Below, in pieces: positions 51,772 to 60,993 of a DNA stretch of 64,000 nucleotides (the first letter of the stretch is position 1; each line of letters starts with the position of its first letter). The position numbers were made by a program, and so were the translations under genes. The stretch comes from an uncultured Bdellovibrionales bacterium (lineage in GTDB: Bacteria; Bdellovibrionota_C; UBA2361; SZUA-149; CAZDWZ01). The notes beneath the pieces were generated by a model, which ran no database searches, was not told the DNA's origin, and saw only the letters and a program-made list of their open reading frames with translations. The DNA is taken from the NCBI GenBank assembly GCA_964405665.1, contig CAYOOT010000006.1, forward strand, positions 3,350-67,349, read 5' to 3'.

Positions 51772-53085
51772 CTATTGTCTTTTCTCCCCCACTAAATATG
51801 CAACTAATGGCAGATTTTGTTTGTTAATAATTAAGCTATGCTCGCAGCTAGTTAGTAGTTGCAACTGATTTTTTGTTGGTAAATTATTACTCTTTAGTTC
51901 AAAGGCAGTTCCCTCAAAATAGAAGTCAATTTCTGCTTTTGTTGTATCTGAGTATAAATAACTTGGTCGATTAACTTCTTCATGCCTTAAAAACTGAGTT
52001 GAAAAAGCAGATTCATGGAGATTTAAATTCCAATCAATTTGTTCTAAGTAATTTCTCCGAATATTATTTCCTATAGCTTGCAAAACCCTGCTGATATAGG
52101 GATCAATTGCATATATTTTTTTAAGTTTTACAGGTAAAAATTTGCCTTTTTGAGGATCAAAGCGGCCAATAGTTCTAATCGAAAAATGATCCTCCTGGAT
52201 TTCAAGTAAGGAACGAATAGTATTAGCACTTAAAATATCAGTATTCTTTTTAAGGGCTTCGAATGAAACTCTGGAATTGATAGTTTCGATCAATCTTTTA
52301 CAAACCGCCCTTAAGCTTTGCTCTTGGGTTCTAATTGTACTCCAAGCACCCAGGATCCAATCCTCATAAACTCTAAATGTTTCATCGGATATTATTTGTT
52401 TAAACATTTTTTCTGCTAAAACTTTAGGAAAGCCGCCATGCAGTAGATAATCTTGCCAGGAATTTGTTAACTCATGCTTACAGGCATTGAGCCAATTCTG
52501 AGTTATGTCCCTAAAGGATAGATTATTGAAGTTCAAGGCTAGTTCAGGATAAAACATGTCAATATATTCTCTAAAGCTCCAAGGTCTTGCAAAAATAACT
52601 TTCCCCTCTCCTTTTCTTCCGGGAAGTCTTTCCCCTGACTCTAATATGTGGCGTGCTTCGCTGCCTGTGCACCAGAGCCTTACATTTTTAAGCTTTCCCT
52701 CTTGATAGAGAGACCTTAATGCCAGATGCCAGCCTTCAACTGATTGTACTTCATCTAAAACAATGGACGTTTTTCCTTTTATATCTTTGCTTAACTGTTC
52801 AGCTAAATCTTTCTTATTGATAATCGTAGAGCAATCTAAAAATGAAATTGTTTCTGAATCGTTTAGTTGGCTAAGCCAGAGCTTTAGGGAAGATGTTTTA
52901 CCAATCTGTCTTGGCCCATAAAGTAAAGAAATCGAGCCAAAAGCCGTATTAAAAATCTTTAATGGTATTGCAGATTTCTCAAAAAGACCTTTCTCTCCCC
53001 ATATTTTTTTAGAACTTTCAATAGCGGGATCTTCGGTTAATATACTGAAATTATTTGATAAATTTGAATTTATAATTATCCGCAT
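51772..53085 (-). CDS. AAA+ ATPase of the AAA_14/DUF4143 (COG1373) type
   Basis: P-loop LLYGPRQIGKTS, Walker B VLDEVQ, and a C-terminal DUF4143-like region; 437 aa. Confidence 0.7.
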   Translation of the reverse strand: MRIIINSNLSNNFSILTEDPAIESSKKIWGEKGLFEKSAIPLKIFNTAFGSISLLYGPRQIGKTSSLKLWLSQLNDSETISFLDCSTIINKKDLAEQLSKDIKGKTSIVLDEVQSVEGWHLALRSLYQEGKLKNVRLWCTGSEARHILESGERLPGRKGEGKVIFARPWSFREYIDMFYPELALNFNNLSFRDITQNWLNACKHELTNSWQDYLLHGGFPKVLAEKMFKQIISDETFRVYEDWILGAWSTIRTQEQSLRAVCKRLIETINSRVSFEALKKNTDILSANTIRSLLEIQEDHFSIRTIGRFDPQKGKFLPVKLKKIYAIDPYISRVLQAIGNNIRRNYLEQIDWNLNLHESAFSTQFLRHEEVNRPSYLYSDTTKAEIDFYFEGTAFELKSNNLPTKNQLQLLTSCEHSLIINKQNLPLVAYLVGEKRQ

Positions 53086-53159: not shown

Positions 53160-53650
53160 TTACTCATTTCGTATTTTCATTCTTTTCGCATAGCGGGCAT
53201 CAGGACAGCAGCGTGGAATCGGTAAATTCATTTTTTTATAAAATTCAAATTCTTGAAGGATTATTTTATAATTTTTAGCGCTAATTTCACAACTTAAGAT
53301 TTCTTTGCAAATATCTGCAGAAGCTTCTTGGAGATCGTCAGGTAAAACGAAAGTCTGTTCCCGATAATCTTTTTTGTTTTCCTCTTGCCAGCGGTAACCA
53401 CTAGCAAGAGCGTTTTCTTTTTCTAAAGGGAATTTTTCATGGGCCACACTTTCATTATAGGCAAAGGGAGAGAGTTGTTTTGGAAAAAACTTCCCCCATT
53501 CCTTTGTTTTTTGCATTTGCTGGATAATTAAAGCTTTTAATTTAGCATACTCATTCGGCGAATATTCTTTATTTTAAAATGAGTCCTGCAGCCTTAGCTA
53601 AAAAATTAAAAGCCCCCGGCACCACAATGCAAAATATTTTACTGCGCTTA
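53160..53650 (-). pseudogene. decayed remnant of a Cys-rich family gene (3' region only, stops upstream, truncated C-terminal module)
   Basis: ORF 53160-53516 encodes …KEWGKFFPKQLSPFAYNESVAHEKFPLEKENALASGYRWQEE…CEISAKNYKIILQEFEFYKKMNLPIPR, the family C-terminal region, ending before the final CxxC. The in-frame upstream translation KYFALWCRGLLIF*LRLQDSF*NKEYSPNEYAKLKALIIQQ still resembles the family (…CFGCVGL…ILNKEYS…) but carries stop codons. Confidence 0.55.
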
Positions 53651-53990
53651 GAGAGAAAGGGTTTTGCCACAGTCAATGAAAGTAACAAAACACTAACTTA
53701 TAATGCCCTGCATTTGCCAGGAAAGTATATGAAAGTGGCAAATATTCTCCCAAATCCCATAAAGGATATAAGTGGATTCCGGAAAGTTTATATCCCTTTG
53801 TTATTGAAATGAATATCTATGATGGCAAAGTTTCCTATTTAACTTATGTGAGAAATGAAATTATCGGAGTGATTATCGAAAACGATTATATTTATCAAAT
53901 GCATAACTCGATGTGGAATTTGGTTTGGGATCTTTTGCCGGGGCCGGGATTAATTCGAGGCAAAAGTAATAAACAAAAGAAATAATATTT

Positions 53991-54755
53991 TTAAGTATTT
54001 TTTATTATCAAGGATATTGCCGATATTAATAAGATAATATCAACTATTCTTTTATATAAAGCTTCCGGAATAGTTTTGTAGAATTTATTTCCAAATAAAA
54101 TACCGATGATAAAAAATGGTAAGCTTAGGACAACTAAGCGAATTACTTCTTGATCAAGCAGGCCGCTGCCACTGATAAAAATAATTCTTAATAAATTAGA
54201 AAAAGATAAAGCCATGATTAAAGTAGCGCGAAAAGCCTTAATCTCAGGCAGAATCTTTTTGTAATAGATTACCAAAAAAGGACCTCCTGTGCCGATACTG
54301 CCTTGAAATCCTCCGAACAATAAGCCATAGATCGATGCAGAAAAATTATTTTCTTTGCTGACGACAAGATTCGAGAAAAAATAACTTTTTATTAGAAAGG
54401 AGATAATTAAGGCTGCAAGAATTAAGCTTAAGATATTTCCAGAAAGTATTTTCAGTAAGAACGTACCCAACAATGTTCCGGGAATCATTCCTAATAAAAA
54501 AAATTTAGATTTATTCCAAGCAATATCTTTGTAGTTTTTAAAGATTAAAAAACCGATAAGAAATTGAAAAATTGCTACAACATTAATTCCAGTTTTTATC
54601 GGAATCAATAAGGCCAGTAGCGGCACAGAAATTAAACCACCACCAAAACCAAAGACTGCCTCACCAATAAAAGCAAAAGTAATGATTAGAACACAGATTA
54701 CAGTAGTAAAAATCAATTTCCCACCGAAGTGTATCGGGCAACTCCCAACCTCCAA
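53991..54755 (-). CDS. TauE/SafE (TSUP) family anion exporter
   Basis: 7-8 TM helices with a duplicated FGFGGGLISVP…/…GTGGPFLVIY pattern typical of TSUP proteins. Confidence 0.7.
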   Translation of the reverse strand: MEVGSCPIHFGGKLIFTTVICVLIITFAFIGEAVFGFGGGLISVPLLALLIPIKTGINVVAIFQFLIGFLIFKNYKDIAWNKSKFFLLGMIPGTLLGTFLLKILSGNILSLILAALIISFLIKSYFFSNLVVSKENNFSASIYGLLFGGFQGSIGTGGPFLVIYYKKILPEIKAFRATLIMALSFSNLLRIIFISGSGLLDQEVIRLVVLSLPFFIIGILFGNKFYKTIPEALYKRIVDIILLISAISLIIKNT

Positions 54756-55507
54756 AAAAAGCGGGCAATAAAACTAAAGACAAGGGCGACTAGTGGAGTA
54801 AGGGCGCAATAAAAATAAAACTCTTCTTTTTTTAGAAAATAAGTTGCCGGAAAGAAAGCAATAAAAGCAAAGGGAATTACCCAACAGAGCAGGAACTGTA
54901 AGATCTTATTGTAAATAGTAATCGGATAGCGACCGAAGTTGATTAAATTAAAAATAGGAGCACTGATTCCCAGACGATCTTCAAAATGAAAAGAAAGTGA
55001 GGAGACAATTACAAAGACTGCCAATAAAATAATACTGCTGGAGATTACACTGGTAATCATCCAAAGAATATCCAGAAAGGAAAAACTAATGCTTAATTGG
55101 CCTGAACTATAAATTACTAAACCCAGTCCCAGTAAGAATGTTCCAAAACTCTCCAGATTAAATGATTCAAAGAGAATCTGGGCCAGAGAATTTACCGGAC
55201 GAAGTAAAATTCGGTCAAACTGTCCTTGAATAATATACTTATCGGAAAAGTTGTAGAGATTAATTGCCACCAACATAAATAAAGCCAGTCCCATATTGGC
55301 AATGCCAAAAATAAAAAATATTTCCTCTCGCTTCCAACCTTGAATGGAAGTGACACTTTCTCCATTGATTAAGAAAAATACATAAAGCAGTCCGGAACAA
55401 GCGGCAATCGTATTGGCAATCAGGGAAATAATAAAATCAGTTTTATATTCAGCACGGGTTTTAATAAATTGAACAAAGTAGGCAAAGAATATGGAGAGCG
55501 TATTCAT
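54713..55507 (-). CDS. ABC-2 family exporter permease (ABC2_membrane_6-like), subunit 2
   Basis: 6-TM permease paralogous to 56305-57114. Same strand and operon as ATPase 57114-58112. Confidence 0.65.
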   Translation of the reverse strand: MNTLSIFFAYFVQFIKTRAEYKTDFIISLIANTIAACSGLLYVFFLINGESVTSIQGWKREEIFFIFGIANMGLALFMLVAINLYNFSDKYIIQGQFDRILLRPVNSLAQILFESFNLESFGTFLLGLGLVIYSSGQLSISFSFLDILWMITSVISSSIILLAVFVIVSSLSFHFEDRLGISAPIFNLINFGRYPITIYNKILQFLLCWVIPFAFIAFFPATYFLKKEEFYFYCALTPLVALVFSFIARFFWRLGVARYTSVGN

Positions 55508-56076
55508 TATTGCTGTTTTTGAAGAATTTTATTCAAAATTTCTAATTCTTTTTGACCATAATTTGCAGTTAGTTTTTTTAAAAGTTCCATATTAAGCTCT
55601 TCTGCAGAAACTTTTAATACATTCTGAATATCTTCCAAATCTTTTGCACTACCAGCAAATATTTTCATGGAAATAAAATCTTCCAAAGAACAGATATTGA
55701 TAGTTTGATTATTAAATGCAGCTGAAACAGTTCTTTTTATAAAAGAATCATCCAAGCCCTTAATTCCAAGTATTAGATCTACTTTATTGGAGTAAGAATC
55801 ACTGACCGCTATTAATCCCTTTAAAGGATCTTCAAAATCGGGCTCATGATACTGAACAGAATATCCTCTATCTTGAAAATCATTTAATAAGCTTTTTATT
55901 GTTGAGGAGCTTTGTTGTAGAAAGATTATTGCATCAATATCAAGACTGGCTCTCACTGAACCATAATAAGAAGCAGCGAAAGCTCCAATAATGCCATAAT
56001 TAATATTCTTTTCTTTAAATAACTCTATCAAGTCTAGAAGTAAGAAGATGGATTGTCCAGTGGCAGTTGTTTTCAT
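55507..56076 (-). CDS. minimal nucleotidyltransferase-fold protein (Pol-beta superfamily GS…DxD) inserted within the ABC-2 operon
   Basis: GIIGAFAASYYGSVRASLDIDAIIF matches the hG[GS]-x9-13-DhD NTase motif. 189 aa with a helical C-terminal half. Confidence 0.5.
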   Translation of the reverse strand: MKTTATGQSIFLLLDLIELFKEKNINYGIIGAFAASYYGSVRASLDIDAIIFLQQSSSTIKSLLNDFQDRGYSVQYHEPDFEDPLKGLIAVSDSYSNKVDLILGIKGLDDSFIKRTVSAAFNNQTINICSLEDFISMKIFAGSAKDLEDIQNVLKVSAEELNMELLKKLTANYGQKELEILNKILQKQQ

Positions 56077-56081
56077 AATAA

Positions 56082-56243
56082 TTATTTATTTCTTTTTTGT
56101 TCTCTGCTTTTTTTTCCAACATGGAAAATTTTTGCCAGTTCTGTAGTGTGATTGACGAATGCTTGCAATCTTTCAGCTTTACTCATTTTCTTATGAGCTT
56201 CTAATAGATCCTCTCTTGATTTTTCATTTAGTTTTGATTTCAT
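56082..56243 (-). CDS. small (53 aa) helical ORF translationally coupled to the nucleotidyltransferase; possible antitoxin-like partner
   Basis: MKSKLNEKSREDLLEAHKKMSKAERLQAFVNHTTELAKIFHVGKKSREQKRNK. Its stop lies 5 nt before the NTase ATG. Below the ORF-track length threshold. Confidence 0.25.
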   Translation of the reverse strand: MKSKLNEKSREDLLEAHKKMSKAERLQAFVNHTTELAKIFHVGKKSREQKRNK

Positions 56244-56304
56244 TTATATAAAATAACACATAAATGATTAATTTTATAGTCTCATTCTTAGACAAGCGCA
56301 AACT

Positions 56305-57114
56305 TTAGCCTCCTTGCAGAGTTAGGCTTTTAATGGATTTTTTCCAAAAAAGTTGCACCAAGATAACAAGCAAGATACTCCAAAGAGTAGCTGCAACATA
56401 ACTGTTGATTAGCTCTTCTTTACTTAGTTTTCCTAGATAAGCCTGCATTGGGATATAGGTAATATATTTAAAAGGCATCAGATCTAAAATATCTTTAAAT
56501 GCCTTAGGAAAGAAACTGAGCGGAAGAAGCAATCCGGAGAATAATTGCAATAAAAAGTATTTTGCCCGAGAAATTCCTTGAATGGATTTTAGACTAAAAG
56601 CAAGTAAGCCAATTAAAAAATTAACTTCAGCAAGAATCATAAAACTTCCCACAGTAAGCAGTAGAAAATGAATACCTGCTGAGAAATTTGCCGGAAACGA
56701 TATTGGATAGAGATAAAATACGGCCAAACAAATGGGAGCGGTAAAAAATAATATTCTAAATAAAGATTCTCCCACGGCCTTAGCCAGCATCATTAAATGA
56801 AAACTAACAGGACGCAGCAAGTAATTACTGATTTGTCCCGTTTTTACAATATCATCGATTTCTTCATCGACATTGGAAAAATAAAAGCTGCGGGCAATCC
56901 AACCAATGGCAATATAGGTAATCATTTCATTGAGCTTAAATCCATTAATCGCCCCATTAGGATTACCGCTATAGACTGCTTCCCAGATGTAATAGTGCAC
57001 TGTGATAAAAAGAATATAAGTGAGGATACCGGTGTAGAATCTCATGCGATAAGAAAGAATCGAGAGAAAGGAAAGATTGATGTAACTAAAATAAGGACCT
57101 AGTTTTTCCAGCAT
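56305..57114 (-). CDS. ABC-2 family exporter permease, subunit 1
   Basis: 6-TM permease. Its start overlaps the ATPase stop. Confidence 0.65.
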   Translation of the reverse strand: MLEKLGPYFSYINLSFLSILSYRMRFYTGILTYILFITVHYYIWEAVYSGNPNGAINGFKLNEMITYIAIGWIARSFYFSNVDEEIDDIVKTGQISNYLLRPVSFHLMMLAKAVGESLFRILFFTAPICLAVFYLYPISFPANFSAGIHFLLLTVGSFMILAEVNFLIGLLAFSLKSIQGISRAKYFLLQLFSGLLLPLSFFPKAFKDILDLMPFKYITYIPMQAYLGKLSKEELINSYVAATLWSILLVILVQLFWKKSIKSLTLQGG

Positions 57115-58112
57115 CAGAGCCCATCGGTATAGATTTTCTTAATAACATCTTCGATGTTTGGTTCAGACAAAATCACATCAGAAACATTAAAATTTGCTAA
57201 AATATCTTTTAATAAATCTCCAGTAGAAAGCAGGTTAGGATCATATTGACAAATTGCCCTTCTGCTACCCTCCATTTCATAACTAAGTTTTTCTTGGAAA
57301 AAAAATTTTAATTTGTCTACTGGGGTTTCTGTGGAGAAATCAATAACCAAGCTTCTCTTTAATCCAGGTAAAGATTTTATTTTATGAATACTACCATCAT
57401 ACATCACAATGCCCTTATCCAAGATTACAATCCTTGTGCACAGCTCCTCAATCTCCTTTAAATCATGGGTTGTCAGTAAGATTGTGGTTTTAAATTCTTT
57501 GTTGATATATTTTAAAAACTCGCGAATACTGTCTTTAGCAATAGCATCAAGCCCAATAGTTGGTTCATCAAGAAATAGAATCTTTGGTTGATGCAATAAG
57601 CTTGCTGCCAAATCACACTTCATTCTTTGTCCGAGAGAAAGTTTTCGAACAGGGGTGTTCAACAAATCTCTTAAATTAAGAACATCACACAAAATATCCA
57701 ATCTTTTTTTATAATCGGCATTGGAAACTTTGTAAATTTTTGCCAGAAGTTTAAAAGATTCAATTACTGCGATATCCCACCAGAGTTGAGTGCGTTGTCC
57801 AAAGACCACACCGATCGAACAAGTATAAGTTTTGCGATCGCGAAAGGGATCAAAACCAAGAATATTCATTTGTCCGGAAGTTGATTTTAAAATACCAGTT
57901 AGCATTTTGATACTCGTTGATTTACCTGCGCCATTTGGTCCGATATAGCCCAGTAACTCACCTTCATTAATCGATAGACTAATATTATCCACGGCTTTAA
58001 AGTCAGTATAGTTTCTTTGAATCAGGTCTTTGAGTCCGCCGCTTATTCCTTCTCGCTTTTTTTGTTGCTTAAAGATCTTTGTGAGGTTTTTTACTTGGAT
58101 AATTTCTGGCAT
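57114..58112 (-). CDS. ABC transporter ATP-binding protein
   Basis: Walker A GPNGAGKST, signature LSLGQRMK, Walker B ILFLDEPT, and an H-loop; 332 aa. Confidence 0.85.
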   Translation of the reverse strand: MPEIIQVKNLTKIFKQQKKREGISGGLKDLIQRNYTDFKAVDNISLSINEGELLGYIGPNGAGKSTSIKMLTGILKSTSGQMNILGFDPFRDRKTYTCSIGVVFGQRTQLWWDIAVIESFKLLAKIYKVSNADYKKRLDILCDVLNLRDLLNTPVRKLSLGQRMKCDLAASLLHQPKILFLDEPTIGLDAIAKDSIREFLKYINKEFKTTILLTTHDLKEIEELCTRIVILDKGIVMYDGSIHKIKSLPGLKRSLVIDFSTETPVDKLKFFFQEKLSYEMEGSRRAICQYDPNLLSTGDLLKDILANFNVSDVILSEPNIEDVIKKIYTDGL

Positions 58113-58171: not shown

Positions 58172-59317
58172 ATGTTCAAAAAAATTTTCTTTCTTTTAAT
58201 TTTCTCTATTAGTTCTTGTAAAAATAATACAGAAACAAAAAATAATCCCAATGATAGCGCCAATCAGCAAAAAATCAAAATTGGTTGGATTGGAGCGCTT
58301 ACTGGTCCGGTAACAAAATTCGGGTCTTACCAGGCGGCACAAATTGCACTTGAGGATATTAATGCCAGTGGAGGAATTAATGGAAAACCGCTGGAACTTA
58401 TTTTTGAAGACGGACAATGTAACGGCAAATTTGCTGTCAGTGCTGCTAAGAAATTAATCGAATTAGATAAGGTCAATTTGATTTTGGGCGGACATTGCAC
58501 TCCGGAATCCCTGGCCATTGCTCCCATTGTGGAAACTAAAAAAGTAGTGATGCTAGCCGCTTCTACTACTACACCAAAATTAAGCAATGCCGGAGATTAT
58601 GTTTTTAGATTAAGTCCAGTTAATACTTCCGGAACAAAGTTGATAATTGATTACTTAAAAAATACATTTAAGCCAAAGAAAATAGCGATATTTTATGAGC
58701 TAACCGATTATGCCGCTCCTCCGGCAGAATTATTAAAATCAGAAATAGAAAAAAATCCTTCGATGGAACTTGTATTTTTTGAAAGCTTTAATACTGGCGA
58801 AACGGATTTTAGAACTTTAATATCTAGATTAAAAAGTAAAGAAGCTGATGCCATTTACGTTGGCACTCAATCCCAAGATTCTGCCTCCTTGGTAGTTAAG
58901 CAAATTAAAGAGCAAAATATTTCCACACAACTTTTTGGCAATGAAGTTTTTGGTGGAGTAGTTGTCTCTCATCCTGAGCAAAAGGCAGATTTTGAAAATT
59001 CTATTTATGCCGAGCCTTTTTTTGATCCAACAACTGCCTTGACCAGCCCTTTTGTTGATAAATATGAAAAGAAATTTGGAACAAGAGCATTACCTTTTGG
59101 AATTTGGACAGCGGAAGCTTATGATACTGTAATGTTGCTTGCTAAATTAGTAAAAGAATGTGGAGAAAGTGCTGAGGCGATAAAAACTTGCCTCTATCAA
59201 GTTAAAGACTATGCCGGTGCTTCAGGAATAGTTTCTATTGATAGCAATGGCGACGGAGTGAGAAAATACTACATTAATAAAATTGTCGACGGTAAACCGC
59301 AAAGAATTGGAGGCTAA
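58172..59317 (+). CDS. lipoprotein, type-1 periplasmic binding protein (branched-chain amino-acid-binding LivK-like)
   Basis: Lipobox LLIFSISSC and a PBP1 pattern (KIGWIGALTGPVTKFG…). 3' end overlaps convergent Cys-rich copy E by 4 nt. Confidence 0.75.
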   Translation: MFKKIFFLLIFSISSCKNNTETKNNPNDSANQQKIKIGWIGALTGPVTKFGSYQAAQIALEDINASGGINGKPLELIFEDGQCNGKFAVSAAKKLIELDKVNLILGGHCTPESLAIAPIVETKKVVMLAASTTTPKLSNAGDYVFRLSPVNTSGTKLIIDYLKNTFKPKKIAIFYELTDYAAPPAELLKSEIEKNPSMELVFFESFNTGETDFRTLISRLKSKEADAIYVGTQSQDSASLVVKQIKEQNISTQLFGNEVFGGVVVSHPEQKADFENSIYAEPFFDPTTALTSPFVDKYEKKFGTRALPFGIWTAEAYDTVMLLAKLVKECGESAEAIKTCLYQVKDYAGASGIVSIDSNGDGVRKYYINKIVDGKPQRIGG

Positions 59318-60993
59318 TTAATCTTAGAGTGATAGCAAGTTTCACACAAAATCCTACTATCATAATCTTTTGGCCAACTGGTTTTAGTGCTCTTTAAACA
59401 TTGCTGACATTTGCTTTCTCGCAGCTCTCCGGAAAAAGGAATCCATTGATAATTATCTTGGAGACGATGAGTATAATAGGAAGACGGTAAGGGCACGCCG
59501 ATTTTATTGGAAAAAATTATATCAGCTTTGCTGATTTTAAATGGACGTTGATATTCTTCATCCCAAAAAACTGTATTTGTTAGCGAATGCTGCGGATCAT
59601 TTAATGCCGCTTGGATTAAATCGGAACTTAGTTGATCGATAATTTCCCGAGAAGAGCAATAATTTGTTTGCTGACGCTCTAATTTTGCTGCTGTTCTAAA
59701 CCCTAATTTACTTTGTTCTTCTTCTGATAATTTAAAACGAAATCCGGATAAACTTTCATTATAGGGATTGGGTGCAAAATGCCCGGGAAAGAAGGTCCCC
59801 CACTCTCCTGTTTCTTTCATTTGTTCAATAATCTGATCTTTTAAAATTCGATATTCTTTTTCGGAATAAGCTTTATTGAAAATATGAAATTTTTTCTGAA
59901 ATAAACCACAACAAGCAAAACAATTTTCGCACTGAAAACAATAAGCCGAGTAATCGCAAAAACGACAGGAATTAAGTTCAAAACTGAAGCTGGTTTGATA
60001 ACAAAAAACATTCATTACGGAATAATAAGTTAGCTCCGTGCCGATTGTTCCCATTGCATCTAATGTAAATTTGGCATTGGGACCGGAGACGGCATCGTTG
60101 ACGCAATTCTCATGATAGGAAAGCTCAAAACAGTTTTCGCAATTCTTGCAATGTTCCAAATAGTTTCCACTGCTATCTTCAGACTTGTCTATAAAAACAG
60201 CCTTGTGATAAGCCGTTTTTAACATCATCTCGGCAAAAAAACTTTTAGCTTTTTGATAAACTGTATTCGATAATAAGTTCCAGTTTTTCTTAGTTTCTTG
60301 AAATTCACTTTCCGTCATCTGCTTGTTGCCGAAACAAAAGCGTTTGTTTCTTAAATTAAAACAAAACATGCAATCGCGACAATTTCTACAATCATAAAGA
60401 AAAGTGGAATCCTGAACATTGCGGCAATGAATGCCATAAATTAAATTATAGCAGTCTTGAGAACAGACCAAATCAAAACAAAGCTCAGAATTGATTCCAA
60501 ATACACAATAGTGACAATCTCTTAATTTGGTACAGTAAATACAGTAATGACAATCTTCGGAATATTCTCCGGAATGACAGAGATAACAATTTTTGCTGTG
60601 ATAAAAATCATCAGTATATTCACAGTTCTGGTTACTCTTTTGAAAAATATGAGGCAAAGGACAGCGCTGAAACAGCTCCCAGGCTTGTTCAAAAAAAGAA
60701 CGGGAAAAAATATAGTTCGTATTTGGCGGATTAGCATTGGCAATCCATTGGTCTTTATGCCAGATCGGGTAAGGACAATCGGGACGAAAAATAGAAACAA
60801 TATTTTGTTTTGTTAAATCACAAGTTCGGGAATACAAATTCCAATGGGGCCAGAATGCTCCCAACTCGCGAAAGCGATATTGTGGTTTGATTTTAGGCCA
60901 GCTCTCAGAAAAACCAAACTTACTTCTTAATTGTTTTTCTAACTCAGAAAGAACAAAGTTTTCTCCTGAGATTTGACAGAGAAGACTACTCAT
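59314..60993 (-). CDS. Cys-rich family protein, copy E (18 nt downstream of bshA, same strand)
   Basis: 559 aa. N-module LLCQISGENFVLSELEKQLRSKFGF…LYSRTCDLTKQNIVSIF, cores ending CFNLRNKRFCFGNKQMTESEF and CCGLFQKKFHIFNKAYSEKEY, C-module …KIGVPLPSSYY…CQQC…LCETCY. Confidence 0.8.
   Translation of the reverse strand: MSSLLCQISGENFVLSELEKQLRSKFGFSESWPKIKPQYRFRELGAFWPHWNLYSRTCDLTKQNIVSIFRPDCPYPIWHKDQWIANANPPNTNYIFSRSFFEQAWELFQRCPLPHIFQKSNQNCEYTDDFYHSKNCYLCHSGEYSEDCHYCIYCTKLRDCHYCVFGINSELCFDLVCSQDCYNLIYGIHCRNVQDSTFLYDCRNCRDCMFCFNLRNKRFCFGNKQMTESEFQETKKNWNLLSNTVYQKAKSFFAEMMLKTAYHKAVFIDKSEDSSGNYLEHCKNCENCFELSYHENCVNDAVSGPNAKFTLDAMGTIGTELTYYSVMNVFCYQTSFSFELNSCRFCDYSAYCFQCENCFACCGLFQKKFHIFNKAYSEKEYRILKDQIIEQMKETGEWGTFFPGHFAPNPYNESLSGFRFKLSEEEQSKLGFRTAAKLERQQTNYCSSREIIDQLSSDLIQAALNDPQHSLTNTVFWDEEYQRPFKISKADIIFSNKIGVPLPSSYYTHRLQDNYQWIPFSGELRESKCQQCLKSTKTSWPKDYDSRILCETCYHSKIN

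Follow-up and report, generated by a model that had tools for sequence, protein, structure and literature searches.

The MenAT1 locus of Mycobacterium tuberculosis (Rv0078B-Rv0078A) encodes a nucleotidyltransferase (NTase) toxin of the MenT/AbiEii family together with a short antitoxin (PMC10435456, PMC11375011). The antitoxin, MenA1, is a helical protein of 68 amino acids (aa) without a DNA-binding domain, which lies across two MenT1 protomers on the side of their active sites and induces auto-phosphorylation of the toxin at T39 (PMC10435456, PMC11375011). T39, D41, K137 and D152 are the four named catalytic-site residues of MenT1; D41 and D43 support metal ions, and the substitutions D41A and K137A each abolish toxicity (PMC10435456). 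In this study, we analyzed a 64,000-nucleotide (nt) stretch of DNA from an uncultured Bdellovibrionales bacterium (contig CAYOOT010000006.1; hereafter, the window), in which an open reading frame (ORF) for a 53-aa helical protein and the gene for a 189-aa minimal NTase lie between the two permease genes of an operon for an ABC-2 (ATP-binding cassette) exporter. We consider it likely that this pair is a self-contained, horizontally mobile toxin-antitoxin (TA) cassette of the MenAT1 type that was caught by chance in the operon and is decaying in relatives. The assignment to the MenAT1 type is based on the linkage of the two genes, the fold and catalytic residues of the NTase, the independence of the pair from the transporter, and deletions in relatives that removed the toxin gene only.

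The pair resembles MenAT1 in that a very short, all-helical protein (53 aa) without a DNA-binding domain is encoded upstream of a pol-beta-type minimal NTase with roughly 190 aa (the MenT1 chain has 196 aa). The two systems differ in that the NTase of the window falls into Pfam families DUF6036 and DUF2204 and not into DUF1814/AbiEii, and in that its partner shows no detectable relationship to MenA1. They also differ in their hosts; MenAT1 comes from M. tuberculosis, whereas the pair described here, which is known from sequence and structural models, occurs in uncultured Bdellovibrionota, Omnitrophota and other environmental lineages.

The nucleotidyltransferase and its small partner

An initial annotation of the window, made from its letters alone, had read a 'GS...DID' motif in the 189-aa protein, and this motif is present at residues 38-50 (YGSVRASLDIDAI). 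That annotation had also proposed profile searches of both small proteins and a structural check of the NTase fold. In the profile searches, the 189-aa protein matched DUF6036 (1.1e-8) and DUF2204 (1.2e-4), past the curated cut-offs of both, each of which is a 'nucleotidyltransferase of unknown function' family, and the 53-aa ORF returned no credible match. As a single sequence the NTase found no match in the PDB; a family profile of 34 sequences recovered one sole credible relative, MenT1 (8an4, 8an5 and 8rr5; E 5.8e-6, residues 20-143), which is deposited there as 'AbiEii/AbiGii toxin family protein'. The NTase fold was confirmed by an AlphaFold2 model (predicted local distance difference test, pLDDT, 89.3; predicted template-modelling score, pTM, 0.84), for which the best Foldseek matches in the PDB were MenT1 chains (8an5 and 8an4; four among the top five, at 9e-8 to 1.4e-6), with E-values overall of 9e-8 to 2e-6 and template-modelling (TM) scores of up to 0.73. 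MenT1 is the best PDB match of the protein by sequence profile as well as by fold.

This resemblance extends to the catalytic residues. The hidden Markov model alignment pairs R42, S44, D46, D48 and K138 of the window protein with R37, T39, D41, D43 and K137 of MenT1, and R42, S44, D46, D48, D100, K138, D146 and D149 are invariant in the 34 homologues. From these alignments, we predict an active site composed of R42, S44, D46, D48, D100, K138 and D146/D149. Weak, sub-threshold matches to Pfam AbiEii occur in 11 of the 34 homologues (best E 0.0012). In each test applied, the 189-aa protein is predicted to be similar to MenT-type toxins, yet in Pfam terms it lies outside DUF1814.

Just behind MenT1 in the Foldseek ranking stand LnuA (4fo1, E 1.3e-6) and ANT(2'')-Ia (5cfu and 4xje, E 8e-5 to 5e-4), with JHP933 and TM1012 also listed after MenT1. 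LnuA and ANT(2'')-Ia are similar to the window protein in size and overall fold (Foldseek E 1e-6 to 5e-4, TM 0.52-0.60), and they are the next-best matches by fold. Hence the NTase might instead be a small-molecule enzyme of the ANT(2'')-Ia/Lnu type that acts on a compound handled by the exporter, either in resistance or to tag it for export, and the small protein would then have a regulatory or accessory role. The initial annotation had offered an enzyme of the transported substrate as its alternative. The sequence evidence points elsewhere, as the profile matches MenT1 and no antibiotic NTase, and the protein has no match to Pfam Aminoglyc_resit or to a Lnu-type family. The genomic contexts that also bear on this explanation are described below.

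Alignment of the small proteins revealed a conserved core that begins MKSK and continues with (S/T)PxERLxAFxxHS, followed by a variable basic tail. The AlphaFold2 model of the window protein (pLDDT 86.8) consists of two helices, at residues 7-19 and 22-52. No credible Pfam match was obtained for this protein and none for 16 of its homologues, NCBIfam gave no match for either member of the pair, and the model had no Foldseek match. A search of the PDB sequences returned nothing at E <= 10, and so no match to the MenA1 chain of 8an5. The likeness of the small protein to MenA1, drawn by analogy, would be functional and architectural, and we claim no homology between the two.

Several results weigh against a MenAT1-type assignment. 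The NTase shares only about 14% identity with MenT1, it has no match to Pfam AbiEii/DUF1814 (PF08843) at E <= 1, and its significant fold matches include LnuA and ANT(2'')-Ia as well. The counterpart of MenT1 D152 could be either D146 or D149, both of which are invariant, in a part of the alignment that is weak (2.3 bits). Neither in sequence nor in fold does the small protein detectably resemble MenA1, and its helices follow a short-then-long order, the reverse of the long-then-short order of MenA1. In addition, PADLOC gave no match for the small ORF or the NTase, no relatives of the NTase pair were found in viral contigs, and a literature search found no mention of DUF6036. With respect to the features that characterize MenAT and AbiE systems, an NTase fold and an upstream partner gene in the same orientation are present, and membership of PF08843 and an antitoxin homologous to MenA or AbiEi (MenA1, COG5340) are absent.

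Two other groups of NTase-containing modules can be compared with the pair. AbiE/MenAT3 systems (type IV/VII) combine a COG5340 AbiEi/MenA3 antitoxin with a DUF1814 AbiEii/MenT3 toxin, and share with the window pair the Ser/Thr-x-Asp-x-Asp motif and catalytic Lys of the NTase, as well as an antitoxin gene that lies upstream. Their toxins, however, are about 290 aa long, and their antitoxins belong to a 22-kDa class in which a winged-helix domain binds DNA and a C-terminal domain confers antitoxicity, whereas the partner here has no winged helix-turn-helix. In MNT-HEPN pairs, which are likewise tightly coupled two-gene modules with a minimal NTase that are frequent in environmental prokaryotes, the NTase is the antitoxin. 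By this precedent the roles in the window could be reversed, such that the small protein is toxic or an effector and the NTase is an antitoxin that inactivates it by nucleotidylation. In line with reversed roles, the NTase is the downstream gene, a position that belongs to the toxin in most, but not all, TA operons. In contrast to MNT-HEPN modules, the small ORF encodes neither a HEPN domain nor an Rx4-6H motif, the NTase does not match NTP_transf_2, the Pfam family of MNT proteins, and the closest of its relatives with a solved structure is a toxin. The initial annotation had likened the pair to an MNT- or AbiEii-like TA system built into a transporter operon; the AbiEii/MenT half of that comparison stands, with MenT1 closest and the pair travelling as a unit, and the MNT-HEPN half does not.

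Linkage of the pair and its independence from the transporter

Approximately 85 full-length homologues of the NTase were found at 40-50% identity, mostly metagenomic and some labelled Omnitrophota, and a profile search of the whole library returned 79 cluster representatives at E <= 1e-30, a number that rises to 722 when the cut-off is relaxed to 1e-10. In all contexts examined by hand, a small-ORF homologue of 60-68 aa lies directly 5' of the NTase gene, either as a called gene (L001, L003 and L009) or as an uncalled ORF (L006 and L007). Among the 80 loci with at least 200 nt of upstream DNA, 78 have a small-ORF homologue directly upstream of the NTase. Because the NTase has about 85 homologues and the small ORF recurs beside it to this extent, both are real genes and not chance ORFs. 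In pairs with clear starts, the two genes overlap by 4 nt (42/64), 11 nt (7/64) or 1 nt (5/64), an arrangement with the geometry of translational coupling. The genes that flank the pair differ in every locus, and include TA genes such as DarT/Macro, ParE with a ribbon-helix-helix partner, AbiEii and a second NTase pair.

Two of these homologues merit separate description. On a metagenome contig, at L007:4945-5632, the pair is adjoined by another NTase of a different kind (167 aa, matching Aminoglyc_resit and NTP_transf_5 and, weakly, DUF6036), and a 64-aa ORF overlaps the end of this second NTase, an arrangement that suggests a cluster of NTase-based modules. The closest relative of the window NTase (L143:1-1058, 80% aa identity) is a copy truncated at its 5' end, starting from about codon 41, on a contig of 1 kb. 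Its upstream flank is GC-rich and unrelated, and no permease 2 gene follows it. It may be a degraded copy located elsewhere or a chimeric assembly, and is uninformative.

To place the pair relative to the transporter, the surveys of NTase loci and of ABC-2 operons can be read side by side. The 85 NTase-homologue loci (316 kb) contained no homologue of an ABC-2 permease, the ATPase or TauE. For the operons, permease 1 alone as a query of genome contigs yielded no relatives, and the sample consisted of 49 loci from the permease 2 alignment, taken from species-representative genomes of the Genome Taxonomy Database (GTDB), plus close relatives obtained by exact-protein look-up. The initial annotation had held that the three ABC-2 genes are usually contiguous, and this is borne out. 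Of the 44 loci with both permease genes, 38 have less than 100 nt between them and one has 137 nt, and in the remaining five the distance is 200 nt or more. It had also suggested a check of homologous ABC-2 operons for the insertion, and in this comparison the pair proved not to be a conserved component, as only three close relatives (L011, L013 and L144) carry any part of it, namely the small ORF. Neither gene was found in the 41 related ABC-2 operons outside that group, namely the 42 counted as having both permease genes minus L011. Since the related operons outside the immediate clade of the window lack the pair and the NTase loci lack ABC-2 genes, the pair is foreign to the transporter, and it plays no part in ABC-2 transport. 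We also considered the small ORF as an ancestral part of ABC-2 operons and rejected this, given its absence from every operon outside the immediate clade.

These contexts also bear on an ANT(2'')-Ia/Lnu-type enzyme. In favor of such an enzyme, the NTase gene of the window is co-oriented and tightly packed within an exporter operon. However, none of the homologous loci holds an ABC-2 gene, their contexts are chromosomal and varied with no resistance-gene setting in any of the 85, and the small upstream partner is coupled to the NTase almost throughout, mostly by the 4-nt overlap typical of TA operons. We know of no resistance NTases for which an obligate small upstream partner is a feature. Moreover, the exporter was kept while the NTase was deleted in the three close relatives. 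We therefore disfavor the alternative put forward by the initial annotation, and regard a small-molecule enzyme as improbable.

Unlike the typical three-gene ABC-2 operon, composed of an ATPase gene and two ABC2_membrane_6 permease genes, the operon of the window has its permease genes parted by a 0.8-kb cassette. All five related operons with split permease genes belong to Bdellovibrionota, and their cargos, which are unrelated, are given in Table 1; no interruptions were seen in the surveyed operons outside this phylum. The junction of permease 1 and permease 2 may be a hot spot for insertions. In another operon (L016:700-3180), two opposite-strand ORFs of 253 aa and 420 aa, methyltransferase-like and glycosyltransferase-like by eye, lie between the ATPase and permease 1 genes.

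Loss of the nucleotidyltransferase gene in close relatives

In L011, L013 and L144, the small ORF occupies the same slot between the permease genes and the NTase gene is gone. In L011, whose permease 2 is 93% identical to that of the window, the small-ORF stop overlaps the permease 2 ATG. In L013, with a permease 2 that is 96% identical, the small-ORF stop is followed by ATAATT, and directly after these letters come the final 20 nt of the NTase gene (window 55526-55507). In L144, an in-frame fusion through an AATAAA microhomology links the small ORF to the final 27 nt of the NTase gene, and the fusion product ends ...KRNKILQK where the window NTase ends ...NKILQKQQ. By synonymous distances, the window is nearer to L013 than L011 is to either. 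Because the three junctions differ and two of them retain NTase remnants, and because the synonymous distances agree, the NTase gene is ancestral and was deleted independently. Judged from the junction sequences, the NTase has been lost at least three times and the window represents the intact state. We considered whether the NTase had only recently entered the window and rejected this, as the 3' remnants of the gene that persist in L013 and L144 show that it was the relatives that deleted it. Accordingly, the claim of the initial annotation that the pair was inserted into the operon holds insofar as the pair is foreign to the transporter, but the insertion is not a fresh one, since the cassette is ancestral in this small clade.

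The small ORF of the three relatives retains 81-87% identity, and the ratio of nonsynonymous to synonymous substitution (dN/dS) for the orphan small ORF is 0.13-0.16, including between L011 and L013, which both lack the NTase, indicating purifying selection. Orphan antitoxins have been discussed in surveys of TA systems, and TA modules are known to decay by losing the toxin while keeping the antitoxin. Since it was the NTase alone that was lost and the partner that was kept, the NTase appears to do the harm and the small protein to protect against it; such a path of decay is to be expected if the NTase is toxic. This pattern ill fits a reversal of roles, in which the small ORF would be an unneutralised toxin surviving alone under purifying selection in three genomes without the NTase. 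Retention of the orphan partner thus points to the NTase as the toxin, and in light of this and of the missing HEPN partner we find an MNT-HEPN-like reversal highly improbable.

A further explanation is that the NTase is a non-toxic housekeeping or regulatory enzyme with a chaperone-like or regulatory partner, or that the pair is a phage-triggered abortive-infection module, and that no addiction-type TA system is involved. The literature offers precedents, as MenT2 has no detectable toxicity, MenT1 is non-toxic in E. coli and relatives of AbiEii act in phage defence, and defence or TA genes are among the neighbours of the pair in other genomes. Against this, none of the PADLOC models was matched and there are no viral-contig relatives, and a housekeeping enzyme would be a poorer fit than a costly or toxic NTase to the pattern in which the NTase was lost repeatedly and its partner was kept. 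We consider this explanation unlikely, although we give it more weight than the other two. A role in defence is in any case compatible with a MenAT1-type cassette and is no true competitor to it.

GC-rich perfect hairpins were observed between permease 1 and the small ORF in two of the relatives, at L011:1886-1942 (AGTTATGTCC...GGACATAACT) and at L013:1-30 (GCAGGTT..AACCTGC at the contig end). These hairpins have no clear counterpart in the window, and could be terminators or repeat elements.

The host operon and a model for the cassette

The ORF listing places six minus-strand ORFs in the order ATPase, permease 1, 53-aa ORF, 189-aa NTase, permease 2 and TauE (Table 1). The gene order and positions agree with those of the initial annotation, which had put every junction at an overlap or under 65 nt; each is overlapping or at most 61 nt long. 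The ATPase and permease 1 genes share 1 nt, permease 1 is separated from the small ORF by 61 nt and the small ORF from the NTase by 5 nt, the NTase stop and the permease 2 ATG have 1 nt in common (TAATG), and the last 43 nt of permease 2 also belong to TauE. All three ABC-2 genes are intact and are 50-60% identical to many Bdellovibrionota counterparts, and the homologues of permease 2 place the window in an uncultured Bdellovibrionota/Oligoflexia lineage. All 269 residues of permease 1 align to homologues of equal length, and the protein is full length. The ATPase is 90% identical between the window and L011, and resembles the drrA-type subfamily of NCBIfam (2.5e-64), under the cut-off of that model.

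Table 1. Features of the host operon in the window, and cargos between the permease genes of related operons (locus handle before the coordinates)
Feature	Coordinates	Strand	Evidence or content
ATPase, ABC transporter ATP-binding subunit, 332 aa	57114..58112	-	Pfam ABC_tran 3.6e-26; first gene of the host operon, outside the cassette
ABC-2 permease 1, 269 aa	56305..57114	-	Pfam ABC2_membrane_6 5.3e-24; intact
AT-rich spacer 5' of the cassette, 61 nt	56244..56304	-	Sequence; holds an imperfect 15-nt inverted repeat
Small helical protein, predicted antitoxin, 53 aa	56082..56243	-	Homologue family; AlphaFold2 helices
DUF6036 minimal nucleotidyltransferase, predicted MenT1-like toxin, 189 aa	55507..56076	-	Pfam, PDB profile, AlphaFold2/Foldseek
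ABC-2 permease 2, 264 aa, intact	54713..55507	-	Pfam ABC2_membrane_6 3.1e-48
TauE/SafE-family membrane protein, 254 aa, TTG start	53991..54755	-	Pfam TauE 4.6e-25
Cargo between permease genes	L012:4770-6017		AAA_14/DUF4143 ATPase
Cargo between permease genes	L017:1649-2209		GTP cyclohydrolase I, opposite strand
Cargo between permease genes	L024:860-4000 and L031:2175-4000		Common insert: unannotated 304-307-aa opposite-strand ORF and 243-248-aa ORF
L024 insert			EamA-like gene in addition
Cargo between permease genes	L011		Small ORF alone

The G+C content stays at about 30-36% throughout and does not shift at the small-ORF/NTase pair, and a repeat search around the cassette found no flanking direct repeats or target-site duplication. 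Directly 5' of the small-ORF start lies an imperfect inverted repeat with 15-nt arms (56247-56261 and 56264-56278; TATAAAATAACACAT and ATGATTAATTTTATA), 80% complementary across a 2-nt spacer and partly kept in L144. A scan for promoters and terminators was at background (19 sites against 16 expected), with no consensus promoter in the 61-nt spacer and no standout terminator, and an Rfam search found no RNA family for the pair. The spacer or its inverted repeat could be an own promoter or operator of the cassette, or could have arisen by chance in AT-rich DNA.

The initial annotation had counted TauE as the last gene of the operon. The gene is indeed there and overlaps permease 2, but it is not a conserved member; it is absent downstream of permease 2 in L011, in L012 and in all 49 GTDB loci, and L013 has only a 40-residue N-terminal fragment of it (58% identity). 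TauE is a lineage-specific neighbour. The whole stretch 3' of permease 2 is rearranged in the window relative to L011. On the minus strand at 51772-53085, the window encodes a 437-aa AAA_14/DUF4143 ATPase that is 92% identical to one near the L011 operon and 23% identical to the different AAA_14/DUF4143 gene found in the permease 1/permease 2 slot of L012. On the plus strand, two short ORFs (53579-53812 and 53809-53985) match residues 39-83 (80%) and 224-281 (86%) of a 283-aa TrmB-like regulator beside the L011 operon; as they match separate parts of that regulator, they represent an internally deleted pseudogene. A 118-aa ORF on the minus strand (53160-53516) shares 77% identity with the last 117 residues of a cysteine-rich L011 protein of 501 aa and, since it matches the C-terminal end only, is a 5'-truncated remnant. 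By eye, it also resembles the C-terminal part of an intact 559-aa cysteine-rich protein in the window (59314-60993).

In the model that we favor, in which the pair is a MenAT1-type cassette, the NTase would be a growth-arresting toxin that adds nucleotides to the 3' acceptor ends of tRNA and so halts translation, by analogy with MenT1 and MenA1 (PMC10435456, PMC11375011). By the same analogy, the small helical protein would neutralise the NTase by binding across its active-site face, and possibly by triggering auto-phosphorylation of Ser44, which is invariant and corresponds to MenT1 T39. The cassette would have landed co-oriented in the junction of permease 1 and permease 2, such that the start of permease 2 is now coupled to the NTase stop. 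It would be transcribed with the operon, and possibly also from a promoter of its own in the 61-nt spacer. In the three relatives, separate deletions of the microhomology type have removed the gene of the predicted toxin, leaving that of the predicted antitoxin as a functional orphan.

A broader reading joins these elements, and we offer it tentatively, as quite possible though short of probable. According to this, DUF6036 NTases and their unannotated 50-70-aa helical partners would form an uncharacterised, environmentally widespread branch of MenT-like tRNA-nucleotidylating toxins. The antitoxin would be a new fold or family that has converged on the strategy of MenA1, with a helix over the active site and induced auto-phosphorylation of Ser44, and the orphan antitoxins kept under selection in the relatives without the NTase would serve as immunity (anti-addiction) genes. 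In addition, the junction between the two permease genes of Bdellovibrionota ABC-2 operons would be a site at which unrelated cargo lands recurrently, with at least four different cargos seen.

Altogether, the finding opens no new class of biology; it provides a testable functional assignment for a Pfam domain of unknown function, as a MenT1-like toxin with a short antitoxin family that is new to description. It also cautions, for annotation, that the NTase should not be read as an exporter function. The deletion series, of one intact pair and three independent toxin-only deletions, is unusually direct genomic evidence for which partner is toxic. If the assignment is true, the MenT family of tRNA-modifying toxins extends past DUF1814 and the mycobacteria into uncultured environmental phyla.

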